Shown here: positions 39,895 through 44,707 of the stretch, piece by piece
How the letters are laid out: each line of letters begins with the position of its first letter
How positions within the stretch are numbered: the first letter of the stretch is position 1
Assembly: GCA_030646255.1 (NCBI GenBank)
Contig: JAUSNF010000009.1
Coordinates: 1-47,931, forward strand
Direction of reading: 5' to 3'
Length of the DNA: 47,931 nucleotides
From: Candidatus Burarchaeum sp.
Lineage (GTDB): Archaea > Micrarchaeota > Micrarchaeia > Burarchaeales > Burarchaeaceae
Notes under the pieces: generated by a model
Database searches by the model: none
What the model saw: the letters and a program-made list of their open reading frames with translations, nothing else
Told to the model about the DNA's origin: nothing
Program-made: the position numbers and the translations under genes

Positions 39895-40515
39895 ATGACA
39901 TCAAGGATATCGAATTTCATAGGCAGCTTCAGACGCTATGAGCGGATAACTGGCATGAGCGAGATTGCGCGCCGCTATTTTGTGATGAATGCCTTTGACG
40001 GCGCGCTCACGATGTTCGGCCTAGTAACTGGCTCATATCTTGCAGGCGTGCGCGCCCCGATGCTTATTTTCTCAGTCGGCATAAGCACTGTACTGGCCAT
40101 TGGAATTTCAGGCCTCTGGGGCGCATTCCTCACCGAGACGGCGGAGCGCAACAGGGCGCTCAAAAGCCTGGAGAAAAAGATGCTCAGGAAGCTCACGGGC
40201 TCCTACCAGAGCGAGGCCTCTAATGCGGCCATTTATGTGACTGCTGCAGTGGACGCGCTCTCGCCCATGCTCGCGGGCTTTGTAATCCTACTTCCCTTCT
40301 TGCTAGCAGAGAAAGGAATGTTTGACATCTCAGAGGCCTACACGCTGGCCCTGGGGCTCAGTTTTGCAATCTTCTTCGGCCTCGGCGCCTTCCTGGGAAA
40401 AACCTCGAAGGACAGCTGGTGGCTCTACGGGCTCAAGATGCTTATGGCGGGCCTGCTGGCTGCGGTGCTGACTTTCGCCCTAAGCTATTCCGGCATCGTG
40501 GCTAGCACTGCGTGA
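39895..40515 (+). CDS. VIT1/CCC1-like membrane protein
   Basis: RRYFVMNAFDGALT, ISGLWGAFLTETAER, several TMs; follows DUF211 as in other archaea. Confidence 0.85.
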   Translation: MTSRISNFIGSFRRYERITGMSEIARRYFVMNAFDGALTMFGLVTGSYLAGVRAPMLIFSVGISTVLAIGISGLWGAFLTETAERNRALKSLEKKMLRKLTGSYQSEASNAAIYVTAAVDALSPMLAGFVILLPFLLAEKGMFDISEAYTLALGLSFAIFFGLGAFLGKTSKDSWWLYGLKMLMAGLLAAVLTFALSYSGIVASTA

Positions 40516-40565
40516 TTTTGGCATTGGCCTGCGCCGTTGCCCTCTTTCCTCGCTTCCCAATCTGC

Positions 40566-40886
40566 CTACTCGAGCATGAGCAGCTTGATGGCGCGCTCGA
40601 GCGCATGCTTCACTTCCGCCTCGCTCTTGCTGCCTGTGCAGATGACCTTGCCGTTCTTGAAAAGAAGCAGCGAAGCCTTGGGGTCCTTGAGCTTCAGGAT
40701 GGCGCCCGGGAACTGCTCGGGCTCGTACTCAACGTCTGTAACCTTCTGCGCTATGGAATAGAGATCGAGCTCAACGCCAAGGTTGGCGCTCGCGACAATA
40801 TTTTCAATCTTGAACGTCGGCTGAATCTTCCGCTTCTTGCCTGCGGGTGCCGTTGTCATTCTTGCAGCCTTTGCCTTTTTAGCCAC
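40566..40886 (-). CDS. Single-repeat (half) TATA-binding protein domain
   Basis: IENIVASANLGVELDL...EYEPEQFPGAILKLKDPKASLLLFKNGKVICTGSKS; 106 aa; GAGGTGG site before GTG. Confidence 0.9.
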   Translation of the reverse strand: MAKKAKAARMTTAPAGKKRKIQPTFKIENIVASANLGVELDLYSIAQKVTDVEYEPEQFPGAILKLKDPKASLLLFKNGKVICTGSKSEAEVKHALERAIKLLMLE

Positions 40887-40943
40887 GCTACCACCTCGGT
40901 ACCTTTATAAAGGGTTTTTAAAGGGTATATTAATAAAAGCTTA

Positions 40944-41510
40944 CTATGCATGCAGCCGTTTCCTTACCATCTGCTCAAGGACCTTGTCTATTCGAAGAAG
41001 TTTGCAAAATCCCTGCGCTATCAACATCCAAAGCAGACCAGACAAAACTATGCGAAGTTCGGAAGACTCTATCATGTTTAGTGTGAATATATTCATGAGC
41101 GAATCAAACAGTTCAGACGGAAATAGCATGCTGAGCCGCCACGCAGATATTATGAATATGCTTGATAGCACAATGCCGAGTCCCAAATAAATGGTGTAGA
41201 TCGCAATAGCGTCGACAAAAAACCAATCATATAGTTTCGAAGTCTTGTTCGCCAGCCAGTCAAAGCTTTCGCTTTTCTCATTTTTGTTCGCGCCTGAAGA
41301 GCGCCTAGCAGCTCTAAATGCAAAATATGCCACGATTATGAGTAATACGACAAAACCCAGGCGTTCGTTCCATTCGTTTCCTCCGTCAAAACCGCCCCCG
41401 AGAATGCGAAGGGTCCCTGATAGATTTTTTCCAAAGTAGATCACGATTACAAAAAAACTTAGGACGGCATAGATGATGAATGCTAGCCAAAGGGACCATT
41501 GACCTTTCAT
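40944..41510 (-). CDS. Hypothetical membrane protein (AT-rich)
   Basis: Four hydrophobic segments; start uncertain (41510 avoids the overlap). Confidence 0.6.
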   Translation of the reverse strand: MKGQWSLWLAFIIYAVLSFFVIVIYFGKNLSGTLRILGGGFDGGNEWNERLGFVVLLIIVAYFAFRAARRSSGANKNEKSESFDWLANKTSKLYDWFFVDAIAIYTIYLGLGIVLSSIFIISAWRLSMLFPSELFDSLMNIFTLNMIESSELRIVLSGLLWMLIAQGFCKLLRIDKVLEQMVRKRLHA

Positions 41511-41553
41511 ACAGTGGTTATTTGGAAATGTATTATTATGGCTTAGCAATATC

Positions 41554-42375
41554 TCAAACCCTGTCTGTCGGGCGCCTGTAGTCCCACTGGATTTCATTTT
41601 TATCAAACTTCAAAGCAGCCTGCTCTAAAGGCAGAAGGACGTTCTCCGCCACATCTAGGACGAATACTTTCCCTTCAGTGTTGGTATATCTGCACGAGAG
41701 GTAAGCACTCTCATGCTCATTTTCCTCCACGCTCACGGTGCCCATTTTCGTTCCTTTCCAGTTTTCCTTGAAAAGCTCAAAAAGCGCGGCGCATGCTAGC
41801 GTAAAATGCCTGGCCTTGCCGGCCTTATTTTTGATGAATCTGTCAAGCCAGATTGGTTCGCCGTCGTTAACCCTATTTGCTTCAATTATCGCGTCAGCCA
41901 TCTTTTGACCATTTTCGGATCGCATTTCTTTTCCGACTGTTTCATAAATCGCCCGCATAACCAGTCCCTCGGTCATCTTTTTATTTGCTGTGGCGTTTTG
42001 CACAACTTTTTTCTTTGCTATATCGTAAAGCCTCAGTATCTCAGACGGTTTATAGTTCAAATCTACTATGATGGTCTCCCAGTGGGCCGTAACATAAATT
42101 CCATTAAGTATGGGCGAATCGGGGCCGATATTTCGATGTGCATATGGCTTAGATGACGGCAAAAGCGTGCAGTTAGTCTCGGGTATCTTCCCGCCCTTCA
42201 TGTTCATGTCTGACGGATGTGACGGCAAAAGTCTGCAGTTGTCCGAGCCTGGCTCGGGCCTCACCTTATTATACTCACCTGCAATGAGCTCCTTTAGCCT
42301 TTTGGCCGCCTCTGGCTTCATGCCTGGCGGTTTCCCTGGACGTTCCCCTCCTTTCATTGCGCCCTTAGGATTCAT
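41554..42375 (-). CDS. Hypothetical protein with degenerate transglutaminase/EDR1-like domain
   Basis: LDRFIKNKAGKARHFTLACAALFE...GKVFVLDVA resembles the GxCRH-type fold; start probably 42375 or 42390. Confidence 0.55.
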   Translation of the reverse strand: MNPKGAMKGGERPGKPPGMKPEAAKRLKELIAGEYNKVRPEPGSDNCRLLPSHPSDMNMKGGKIPETNCTLLPSSKPYAHRNIGPDSPILNGIYVTAHWETIIVDLNYKPSEILRLYDIAKKKVVQNATANKKMTEGLVMRAIYETVGKEMRSENGQKMADAIIEANRVNDGEPIWLDRFIKNKAGKARHFTLACAALFELFKENWKGTKMGTVSVEENEHESAYLSCRYTNTEGKVFVLDVAENVLLPLEQAALKFDKNEIQWDYRRPTDRV

Positions 42376-42485
42376 ACTTAACTTCCTCATCCAGGACTTA
42401 AAAACCCACCACCCGCCGAAGCGCGCATATAAACCCTTTAAATAGTTAGCGTGCAGAATAACAGGCGAGAGGAGGGGCAGATTGT

Positions 42486-42764
42486 ATGCGACGTTCACTT
42501 GGAAAGCTATCGAAGAGGACCAGGCTTCTGCGCAGGCGGAGCCGCACATCGCTCAGCGTGAGTCAGAGACTCAAGCAGCTGGCGGTTGGAGATGAGGTGC
42601 ACTTGACTCACATGACGAGCAGGAGCATGCCGCACCCGCGCTACCGCGGGAGGACGGGCACGATCGTCGGCAAGCAGGGCAGTGCGTACTTGGTCAGGAT
42701 CGCGGACCACAACATGATTAAGAGGCTCGTCATAGAGGGCGTGCATCTCACAAAGGTGATATGA
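42486..42764 (+). CDS. rpl21e: 50S ribosomal protein L21e
   Basis: MRRSLG..SKRTRLL, GDEV, MPHPRYRGRTGTIVGKQGSAY, HL. Confidence 0.93.
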   Translation: MRRSLGKLSKRTRLLRRRSRTSLSVSQRLKQLAVGDEVHLTHMTSRSMPHPRYRGRTGTIVGKQGSAYLVRIADHNMIKRLVIEGVHLTKVI

Positions 42765-43285
42765 TGATTGGACGAAATATTGCGTCGGCAAGGCCGGCAA
42801 CAATTGCAGAGGTCGAGGCGCTGCTGCAGGCGCAGAAGGACGGGCGCGAGCTCTCATTCGAGCAGCAGACCACGCTCGACTATGCCAAGAAGGTCGCGAA
42901 GACCTCTTCAAAGAGCGCGCAATCGCTCGTGAAGGAGCTTGTGAAGCTGGAGAAGCTCACTCCCGAGGTTGCGTGCAAGCTCGTGGACCTGCTGCCTGTG
43001 AACAAGGAGCAGCTTACGGCCATAGTGTCAAAGGAGCGCTACACTCTGAGCGAGAAGGAGATTGAGCAGGTTCTTTCAATGCTTGCAAAGGCCGCCAGCG
43101 AGAGGCCGAGGTACAAGCCCGAGGAGCCTTCAGTTGACGAGGTTGGCTTGGCCGTCGATGTCGTCTCCGCAGCCGAGGCCCCGGAAGCAGCAAGCACCGA
43201 ACTCGAGAAGGAAGCGAAGAACGAGAAGAAGGAAGATGAGAAGGAAGCAAAGGGCGAGAAAAAATCAAAGAAGAAGGAAGACTGA
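42761..43285 (+). CDS. rpoF: RNA polymerase subunit Rpo4 (RpoF) with charged C-terminal tail
   Basis: ELSFEQQTTLDYAKK, ACKLVDLLP; conserved position after rpl21e. Confidence 0.88.
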   Translation: MMIGRNIASARPATIAEVEALLQAQKDGRELSFEQQTTLDYAKKVAKTSSKSAQSLVKELVKLEKLTPEVACKLVDLLPVNKEQLTAIVSKERYTLSEKEIEQVLSMLAKAASERPRYKPEEPSVDEVGLAVDVVSAAEAPEAASTELEKEAKNEKKEDEKEAKGEKKSKKKED

Positions 43286-43317
43286 GTTCGTGAATGTGTT
43301 GTACGGGGATCAGGTGG

Positions 43318-43911
43318 ATGAAAATGTTGCAGCTCGAGGAGAAGGCAGTTGTAATCGACTACCTGCCGCTTGGCAAGTCCACTGACATGACCAAGCAATC
43401 CATAGCGCAGCTGCTGGGCATGAGCTACTTCACGCTGCTCGAGGCCACGCTGAAACCCGCGAGCTCGCTTTCCATAGGTGAAGTCGTGAATGTGGGCAAG
43501 GAGAACCGGGACAAGGTGGAGCACATAAAAGGCCGCATAACTTATGACCAGCTTACCACGGGCGCCAAGAACGAGCTCAAGACTGCCATCAGGATTGTCA
43601 TAATGTCGCGCGAGCCTGACTTCGTGAACTTCTACAACAAATCGGGCGCGATTACGATGCGCGTAAACCAGCTCGCGCTCCTGCCAGGGATAGGCAAGAA
43701 GCACTTGGAAGCCATAATAAACGAGCGCGAGCGCAAGCCCTTCGAGTCCATGGCTGATATAACCAAGCGCGTTTCATTGCTGCCAGATCCCGCTAACTTG
43801 CTCGTGCAGAGGATAGAGCAGGAGCTGCACGGCGATGAGCAGCACTACCTGTTCGTAAGGCCTCCTTCGCACGCAATGGATCAGCCATACGGATCATTTG
43901 GAAGATACTGA
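43318..43911 (+). CDS. DUF655 family putative RNA-binding protein
   Basis: EEKAVVIDYLPLG, FTLLE, FVNFYNKSGAITMRVNQLALLPGIGKK, PFES. Confidence 0.9.
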   Translation: MKMLQLEEKAVVIDYLPLGKSTDMTKQSIAQLLGMSYFTLLEATLKPASSLSIGEVVNVGKENRDKVEHIKGRITYDQLTTGAKNELKTAIRIVIMSREPDFVNFYNKSGAITMRVNQLALLPGIGKKHLEAIINERERKPFESMADITKRVSLLPDPANLLVQRIEQELHGDEQHYLFVRPPSHAMDQPYGSFGRY

Positions 43912-43951
43912 TGGGGACGGGCAAGCGGGACTAACAGGAACGGCTGAGCTC

Positions 43952-44707
43952 ATGGAGCGGCGCGCAAAAAAGCTCGGGCAGTGCTTTCTTTCAGACTACA
44001 GGGTTATCGACCGGGAGATAGATTATGCCGCGCCCGAGGGCAAGACCATTCTTGAGATTGGTGCAGGCGACGGCAGGCTTACAATGCGGCTCGCCGAGAA
44101 GGCCAAGCACGTGATTGCGGTTGAGAAGGACGACCGCATGCTCGAGTTCCTGCTGCCCCTCGTAACACAATACCGCAACCTCGAAATCCTGCACGGCGAT
44201 TTCCTCGAGCTCGACTTTTCGGACAAGCGCTTTGACGTAATTTTCTCCAACGTGCCCTATGTAATTTCCTCTCCCTTGCTATTCAAGCTCGCAACCATGA
44301 GGTTCGACCGCGCGGTTCTCTGCCTGCAGAAGGAGTTCGTGGACCGCATGCTGGCAAAGCCCGGTGACAAGAAGCGTTCAAGGCTGTCAGTCATGAGCCA
44401 GCTGCACTTCGACGTGTGGGGCCTTGAGAGCGTGCCGCGCACTGCCTTCAAGCCCAGGCCCAAGGTGGATTCCACGATAATTGAGCTGCACCGCAGGGAC
44501 TTCCGGGCAACCGAATTCCAGTCAGAATTCATCAACAAGCTCTTCCAGCACAAGGTGCGCACTGTGCGCAGGGCCCTGCGCGATGCCTACGGCCGGCAAG
44601 TTTCAGAACTGAAGACAAACTTAGACGAGAGGCGCGTATTTTCACTAACCAATGAGGAAGTTCTGAAGCTTGCAAAGGAACTGGAACCGCTGCTTACTTT
44701 GACGTAG
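43952..44707 (+). CDS. ksgA: 16S rRNA adenine dimethyltransferase KsgA/Dim1
   Basis: KKLGQCFL, LEIGAGDG, VEKD, SNVPYVISSP, QKEFVDRM, SRLSV, FKPRPKVDS. Confidence 0.94.
   Translation: MERRAKKLGQCFLSDYRVIDREIDYAAPEGKTILEIGAGDGRLTMRLAEKAKHVIAVEKDDRMLEFLLPLVTQYRNLEILHGDFLELDFSDKRFDVIFSNVPYVISSPLLFKLATMRFDRAVLCLQKEFVDRMLAKPGDKKRSRLSVMSQLHFDVWGLESVPRTAFKPRPKVDSTIIELHRRDFRATEFQSEFINKLFQHKVRTVRRALRDAYGRQVSELKTNLDERRVFSLTNEEVLKLAKELEPLLTLT

Follow-up and report, generated by a model that had tools for sequence, protein, structure and literature searches.

In the available parts of two papers that discuss it (PMC3597702, PMC11763024), the TATA-box-binding protein (TBP) of all archaea and eukaryotes is a pseudo-symmetric monomer with two repeats, and a homodimeric precursor with one repeat counts as hypothetical or extinct. 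Free-standing single TBP domains are nevertheless on record. As far as the available text of Brindefalk et al. (2013; PMC3597702) goes, these monopartite TBP-domain proteins comprise halobacterial TbpA and a set of diverged proteins of the Thermococcales (91-97 aa), each tabulated beside a full-length TBP of the same genome. A comparative study of the DPANN archaea, again in its available part, gives TFB and TBP as conserved in ~89% of genomes (PMC8407392). A search of the open full-text literature turned up single TBP-domain proteins solely in company with a full TBP, and no lineage reported to have a single-repeat TBP as its sole TBP; supplements, e.g. those of PMC3597702 and PMC7221094, may list single-lobe DPANN sequences. 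The terms DPANN and homodimer are absent from the available parts of Adachi et al. 2016 (PMC4910066) and Ravarani et al. 2020 (PMC7221094), as is the word TBP from the Micrarchaeota genome and culture papers among the matches listed.

The gene considered here lies in a 47,931-nt stretch of DNA (the window) from Candidatus Burarchaeum sp., and it encodes a protein of 106 aa with one TBP repeat behind a basic tail (Table 1). Canonical archaeal TBPs, of which those of Methanocaldococcus jannaschii (2Z8U) and Pyrococcus woesei (1PCZ, 1AIS, 1D3U) serve for comparison, have two repeats in tandem on one polypeptide; this protein does not. Pfam PF00352 matches it in a single stretch, residues 25-103 (E 1.5e-29; 102 bits against a cut-off of 22.9), and the full-length NCBIfam TBP models align with it by their first or their second half alone, at 65-98 bits against cut-offs of 181-347. 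TBPs in the PDB match it at E 2.4e-43, and the two halves of 2Z8U align with it almost equally well (73.4 and 75.4 bits), with 47-49% identity to either.

Table 1. Features of the single-repeat TBP gene and its upstream region (window coordinates)
Feature	Position	Strand	Remarks
Single-repeat TBP coding sequence	40566..40886	-	106 aa; GTG start; TAG stop (40566-40568) included
Single TBP repeat, residues 24-104	40575..40817	-	Strands S1-S5 and helices H1, H2; based on Pfam, AlphaFold2 and Foldseek
Basic N-terminal tail, residues 1-22	40821..40886	-	Predicted disordered; pLDDT <50 at residues 1-4 and 6-13
Shine-Dalgarno-like GAGGTGG	40891-40897	-	4 nt before GTG; GGTGG at the same place in orthologues L019, L020, L006, L008 and G003
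Perfect 12-bp palindrome CCTTTATAAAGG	40902-40913	.	Upstream of Shine-Dalgarno site and GTG
Palindrome core TTTATAAA	40904-40911	.	-25 to -18 from GTG; identical to the consensus TATA box of the genome
Second TATA-like box TTTAAAAA	40915-40922	-	-36 to -29 from GTG
Third A/T-rich box TTTTATTAATATA	40926-40938	-	-52 to -40 from GTG

The residues that matter in a canonical TBP are largely in place. N29, F59, F76 and T84, which we take from TBP-DNA structures to be DNA-contacting positions, are the same residues at the aligned positions in both repeats of 2Z8U and 1D3U. The same is true, in both repeats of 2Z8U, of E55-P56-E57-Q58, presumably the acidic stirrup that meets TFB/TFIIB in solved complexes. 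An alignment of 46 single-repeat orthologues has 27 invariant columns, among them N29, Y54-EPEQFPG-AI63, L73-L74 and F76-KNGK80, so that N29, F59, F76 and the EPEQ stirrup are all invariant; T84 is replaced by S or A in some clades. What is shared with canonical archaeal TBP is thus the repeat with its aligned N, both F and EPEQ. The protein differs from it in its basic N-terminal tail and in its signature, which is FPGAI...LFKNGK here and FPGL/V...F-SGK in the canonical protein. The choice of start codon is backed by a V/M-AKK N-terminus and a GGTGG placed 4-6 nt upstream, both conserved in orthologues, whose N-terminal tails are likewise rich in lysine and arginine and of variable length.

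On one side of the gene a convergent gene of the VIT1 family ends at 40515, 50 nt from the TBP stop, and on the other a gene on the same strand (40944-41606, minus) ends 57 nt before the TBP start, which leaves too little space for a second repeat. This upstream ORF (220 aa) and the next (41554-42549, 331 aa), both on the minus strand, overlap by 53 nt as listed, and a Pfam search matched neither to a family. Nearby, at 42486-44707, are genes for L21e, Rpo4/RpoF, DUF655 and KsgA. The earlier note, made from the letters of the window, had described an ORF of 106 aa with one TBP repeat, a basic N-terminal tail, a good Shine-Dalgarno site, a perfect 12-bp palindrome and no space for a second repeat on either side, and in all of this it was correct. 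It had also stated that the typical DNA-contact positions are kept, which is borne out by the alignment of N29, F59, F76 and T84 with 2Z8U and 1D3U, but T84 is not constant among the orthologues.

The 106-aa protein is the organism's sole TBP. The host genome, of the Micrarchaeota (G000; 1.21 Mb in 61 contigs, of which the window is number 16; 84% complete, 54% G+C), gives one match to PF00352 at E<=1, and a six-frame hmmsearch, run without filters from a profile of 424 TBP repeats, likewise gives one match (1.6e-37), the next being noise (E 3.4). In the GTDB order to which it belongs, 28 of the 29 species genomes have TBP matches. These number 39, and their open frames measure 51-145 aa; a two-repeat TBP in one frame was found in none of the 29. 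The single form is present in each of the 14 high-quality genomes (>=90% complete), which include one that is 100% complete, one of 98% in 6 contigs and one of 96% in 2 contigs, and the only genome of the order that has no match is 73% complete. Most have exactly one match, while in some there are two or three paralogues, each of a single repeat. Among named proteins the closest is one of 105 aa, annotated as the TATA-box-binding protein of Candidatus Burarchaeum australiense, at 94% identity. Eighty related loci from species genomes are mostly titled Micrarchaeota, Micrarchaeia or Iainarchaeum, and the rest belong to other or unclassified archaeal MAGs. The full-length TBP or second half for which the earlier note allowed was thus found nowhere in the genome, and single-repeat orthologues of the kind it asked for exist throughout the order without, in its 29 genomes, the two-repeat TBP of relatives that the note had named as a refutation. 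Its suggestion that the protein might modulate TBP and TFB fares badly, because neither this genome nor any of the 14 of high quality in the order has another TBP.

Two of the genomes with paralogues have them in tandem. The single-repeat duplicates L023:2995-3300 and L023:4264-4575 lie 1.2 kb apart with a dS of 0.037 and no amino-acid change in the repeat, and those at G022:C62:704-943 and 1973-2215 are ~1 kb apart. Such duplicates are possible raw material for fusion.

The setting of the gene resembles that of a canonical archaeal TBP. The genome has two TFB genes, each encoding a Zn ribbon and two cyclin repeats, and a motif search over 609 upstream regions of crude gene calls recovered AAA-nn-TTTAWAWA in 288 of them, which together indicate that promoters of the TBP/TFB type are in use. 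Scanned alone, the 8-mer core has its first T most often at -30 to -28 relative to the start codon; this is so for 29 of the 132 sites that precede co-directional genes and for 38 of the 127 that precede divergent ones. This spacing suggests that many mRNAs of this 54% G+C genome are leaderless. The motif is near-palindromic, with AAA upstream and C/T downstream of TTTAWAWA, and in this one genome, where divergent promoters mix the orientations, position 2 is T at 0.84 and position 7 is A at 0.52, which falls short of perfect symmetry. Because of that mixing, and because no canonical archaeon was compared, the symmetry of the promoters lends no support to a symmetric TBP.

The AlphaFold2 model of the monomer (pLDDT 79.9; E24-28, E31-35, H42-48, E52-54, E62-66, E71-75, E80-84, H89-104) has the element order of the TBP-repeat fold of five strands and two helices. 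Foldseek superposes it on 2z8u_B with an rmsd of 0.7 A over 76 columns and a TM score of 0.70 by the query and about 0.42-0.43 by the target; against the separate halves of 2Z8U and 1AIS the rmsd is 0.7-1.0 A, and all 44 of the Foldseek matches at E<=0.001 are TBPs. Two copies folded together from the 46-row alignment gave ipSAE values of 0.72, 0.69 and 0.67, the best of three controls giving 0.00, with contacts that agree by at least 92% between runs and a partner pLDDT of at least 79. In the calibration of the method, the pass mark is reached by 20 of 30 proteins whose solved structure pairs two copies of one chain, as against 1 of 23 proteins solved as single chains, counts which hold only roughly here because a custom 46-row alignment was used. 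In the models, the two copies of residue 30 face each other, the first strands running antiparallel across the dyad, and the C-terminal helices pack together; the predicted interface comprises residues 21, 23-38, 82-83, 89, 92-93, 96-97 and 100. We take this to be the way in which the two repeats of a normal TBP meet. On that account the prediction may be no independent evidence but a consequence of resemblance to solved TBPs, and the success of the dimer may stem from the model's memory of two-repeat structures. With this proviso, the homodimer put forward in the earlier note passes as a prediction.

Since there is one repeat per polypeptide, any saddle must be an exactly symmetric homodimer, and we consider it fairly probable that this protein is a general TBP which acts as such a dimer, with the direction of transcription set by TFB and BRE. 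Two copies would pair through their first beta-strands and C-terminal helices to make the usual ten-stranded saddle, now with exact two-fold symmetry. This saddle would bind TTTAWAWA, the near-palindromic TATA box that lies ~30 nt ahead of most genes. The dimer would offer two identical EPEQ stirrups to TFB. It would then be TFB, reading an A-rich BRE on one side, and not TBP that decides which way transcription runs. Bell and colleagues reportedly found in 1999 that the archaeal pre-initiation complex takes its direction from the contact between TFB and BRE, which explains how a symmetric TBP could suffice. Additional TATA boxes in the leader of the TBP gene itself would mediate autoregulation. 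What has been shown is a real and conserved gene for the only TBP, under purifying selection and with the residues that align with the TBP phenylalanines and stirrup kept, in a genome that has TFBs and BRE/TATA promoters; dimerisation, DNA binding, recruitment of TFB and autoregulation through the leader boxes are inferences.

These boxes are an unusual feature of the locus. Two strict TATA boxes within 70 nt are found in 2 of 626 upstream regions of the genome, and an arrangement of three or four boxes is common to the orthologues of the family. The palindrome CCTTTATAAAGG has a single copy in the window, against 0.04 expected, and no further copy in the rest of the genome. The same 12-mer is found upstream of the orthologue in three of the four family members, and in the congener and a second member (L020 and L019) it directly precedes the Shine-Dalgarno site; the fourth (G003) is without it but has four tandem TATA-like boxes. 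Given the position of TTTATAAA and the usual spacing of the genome, a transcript from it would begin ~5 nt within the ORF. An mRNA that relies on the conserved Shine-Dalgarno site is therefore unlikely to have TTTATAAA as its promoter. The likeliest promoter, if the transcript includes that site, would be TTTTATTAATATA. A search for RNA runs that cover the locus found none. CCTTTATAAAGG is instead a candidate autoregulatory TBP site. The earlier note proposed that the protein possibly binds its own symmetric TATA site, and autoregulation of this kind, at or near the start site of the gene, is a reasonable conjecture.

The single-repeat state is clade-wide and is one of three architectures in the class, which goes beyond what the earlier note foresaw. 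The class was sampled by 251 genomes at least 85% complete, two of them unpublished (G087 and G252); TBP matches occur in 245, or in 243 of 249 when these two are set aside. What follows at the level of families is based on 150 of the 423 matches together with the number of matches per genome. In the first architecture, that of the present genome, there is one single-repeat gene: exactly one match was counted, by hand tally, in 78 of the 251 genomes, among them 19 of the 26 that the sample has from this order and most of families f10, f12, f14, f15, f17 and f18. In the second, among the matches listed, a fused two-repeat gene in a frame of ~190-220 aa characterises families f11, f16, f19, f20, f22, f24 and f30. 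The third, seen in family f13, has two unlinked single-repeat genes. Matches are present in 52 of the 53 f13 genomes at least 90% complete (51 of 52 without G087), and nearly all of these have exactly two, which in one genome of a single contig lie 210 kb apart (L115/L116, at 246196 and 456606 of G090:C1). The f13 paralogues are ~100-125 aa long, mutually diverged and each conserved across genomes (also L117/L118, L119/L120 and L121/L122). They suggest either a TBP split into two genes that form a heterodimer or two alternative homodimers. Among the matches listed, each architecture is consistent within GTDB families.

The fused TBPs of Micrarchaeota and Iainarchaeota are close relatives of the protein described here. 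Each of their repeats is 60-80% identical to it and carries the same FPGAI/FKNGK signature, but they have two repeats in one chain, with N- and C-type flanks around a homogenised centre, where this protein has one. The N and C repeats of 44 such proteins are 52-84% identical to each other; for 129 diverse two-repeat TBPs from a representative library the median is 38% (range 27-63%). Such closeness of the two repeats counts in favour of the symmetric dimer, as a sign that symmetry is tolerated in the phylum. In twelve fused genes the stirrup and the next two strands (S3-S4) hold 30-nt windows in which the two repeats share 90-100% of their DNA sequence, and 97-100% in ten of the twelve, while the DNA of the flanks is 40-80% identical. 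Fused genes with a tract of this kind include L123-L131, L026, L036, L048 and L076. When only tracts at least 93% identical in protein are compared, the DNA identity has a median of 0.92 for pairs within a gene (15 pairs) and 0.78 for pairs of orthologues (375 pairs). When repeats of fused genes were classified as N or C, the flanks were assigned correctly in 84 of 88 and 86 of 88 cases and the central tract in 63 of 88. The pattern is that of intragenic gene conversion, and we conclude that the centre evolves in concert in lineages where the fusion itself is old.

The representative library also contains TBP proteins with three or four repeats, P0122 (272 aa), P0129 (702 aa) and P0123 (376 aa). 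In P0122 a third repeat comes after two that are nearly identical, and P0123 looks like a eukaryote-type TBP core taken twice. All three may be artefacts of assembly or gene calling.

The repeats were also placed in trees, from alignments of 81 columns that leave most deep forks without resolution. In several fused lineages the N repeats are sister to the C repeats (support 89-97), and when 40 canonical TBPs are added, the canonical N and C groups stand apart from all Micrarchaeota and Iainarchaeota repeats (branch support 93). Repeated independent duplications, to which the sister grouping had pointed, were dropped as an explanation once gene conversion in the central tract was seen, since with a concerted centre that grouping is not evidence for them. 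On profiles of the head and tail of the repeat the query scores +4.0 and -6.3, the medians being +18.2 and +18.7 for N repeats and -14.9 and -22.3 for C repeats. Single-repeat proteins in general are intermediate on this scale, and their clades lean in different directions.

The single-repeat state is probably a derived one, reached by loss of one of two repeats that conversion had made alike in a fused gene. Recombination between the identical central tracts of such a gene would delete exactly one repeat unit in frame. Secondary loss is the more economical course because other archaea show distinct N and C groups and the Micrarchaeota are one archaeal phylum.

It is unlikely, on present evidence, that the half-TBP pairs instead with a partner that has escaped recognition, be it a very divergent TBP-like protein or an unrelated one, or that it works as a monomer. 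Partners of the first kind might be sought among very divergent TBP-like proteins of 97-100 aa that are devoid of the FPG motif and occur beside a normal single-repeat TBP in three genomes of the order. Their PF00352 scores are 42 bits in G005 (L113:465-767), 25 in G004 (L114:499-792) and 21.5, below the cut-off, in G012. Family f13, which has the signature of the present protein and single-repeat genes but keeps two diverged, unlinked paralogues in each genome, points the same way, and with these proteins it shows that hetero-pairing exists as a theme. The divergent proteins of G005 and G004, however, found no match when used as queries against the present genome, where the permissive six-frame search had also given no second TBP match. 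Most genomes of the order have a single match to offer, and the homodimer passes as a model.

An artefact of assembly, in which two real repeats with identical central tracts were collapsed into one chimera by short-read assemblers, is very improbable. The thought is not idle, because the central tracts of ~90 nt in fused relatives are 97-100% identical, and a collapse there could mimic a single repeat; 4 of 52 fused genes reach a repeat identity of at least 0.97 over 90 nt. There is also L080:1052-1318, a single-repeat gene of 89 aa whose 5' 180 nt follow the N repeat and 3' 180 nt the C repeat of the fused type in G131, exactly an N head with a C tail. It could equally be a deletion of one repeat by recombination or a collapse in assembly. 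Yet fused genes with identical tracts have been assembled correctly in many MAGs, and the distribution is systematic, all 28 TBP-bearing genomes of this order being single while other families are uniformly fused (in f11 and f22, every match listed, in frames of ~190-310 aa). Single-repeat genes are present in genomes of 1-6 contigs (G020, G010, G090 and G060), and the flanks of the query, unlike those of L080, are neither clearly N-like nor clearly C-like. In a public re-assembly of run X1, possibly the source sample, a contig of 5227 nt is unbroken across the locus, and contig pieces from a second run of the same study span the stop (40489-40680) and the start (40836-41011) with 0 differences, thus bridging both ends of the gene. 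Run X1 also contains a contig of 160 nt, at lower depth, that matches 40617-40661 with 5 differences and then diverges into other sequence; it probably comes from another organism or strain of the sample.

Still less credible is an accessory single-domain TBP, comparable with halobacterial TbpA or the monopartite proteins of the Thermococcales, with the full TBP of the organism hidden in the unassembled 16% of the genome. The incompleteness is real, and proteins of this sort beside a full TBP are documented in the available text of PMC3597702. They share with the present protein a free-standing single domain, of <150 aa (~100) and outside any larger ORF. Those proteins, however, co-occur with a full TBP and in the Thermococcales are highly diverged, whereas this one is a near-consensus repeat, by its PF00352 E-value, in an order whose 29 genomes, 14 of them of high quality, contain no two-repeat TBP. 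Finally, recent truncation or a decaying pseudogene can be set aside with near certainty: nothing is broken at the start, the Shine-Dalgarno site or the stop, conservation of the protein extends across the order and further, and strong purifying selection, taken with the 27 invariant columns, rules out a decaying fragment. The comparison with the congener gives 21 synonymous and 0 non-synonymous changes over 80 codons (dS 0.55), and the other pairs with a computable dS have dN/dS of 0.02-0.11, three distant pairs being saturated; the absence of purifying selection, which the earlier note had named as fatal to its reading, is thus not what the values of 0 to 0.11 display.

What stands out is the single-repeat architecture, its status as sole TBP and the architectural flux within the phylum; fold and sequence are ordinary. 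We lean, by a small measure, towards a broader view in which the whole order and many further families start all transcription with a homodimeric, symmetric TBP, and in which the phylum shuttles between one-repeat, two-gene and fused forms through recombination in the conversion-homogenised core. One practical consequence is already evident, as single-repeat proteins fall far below the cut-offs of annotation rules and marker sets built around a TBP of ~180 aa.

If the homodimer is real, the long-postulated ancestral state of TBP, a symmetric homodimer, would be in use across a whole order and many families. It would amount to a natural experiment on the need for asymmetry in TBP, with the direction of promoters resting wholly on TFB and BRE. 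Sole single-repeat TBPs make it possible to test whether a symmetric saddle binds and bends TATA DNA, how many TFBs it recruits, whether BRE alone gives direction and what is gained by fusing and differentiating the repeats. Three architectures in one class, together with gene conversion between repeats, offer an uncommon chance to see domain duplication, fusion and loss in progress in a protein at the core of information processing.
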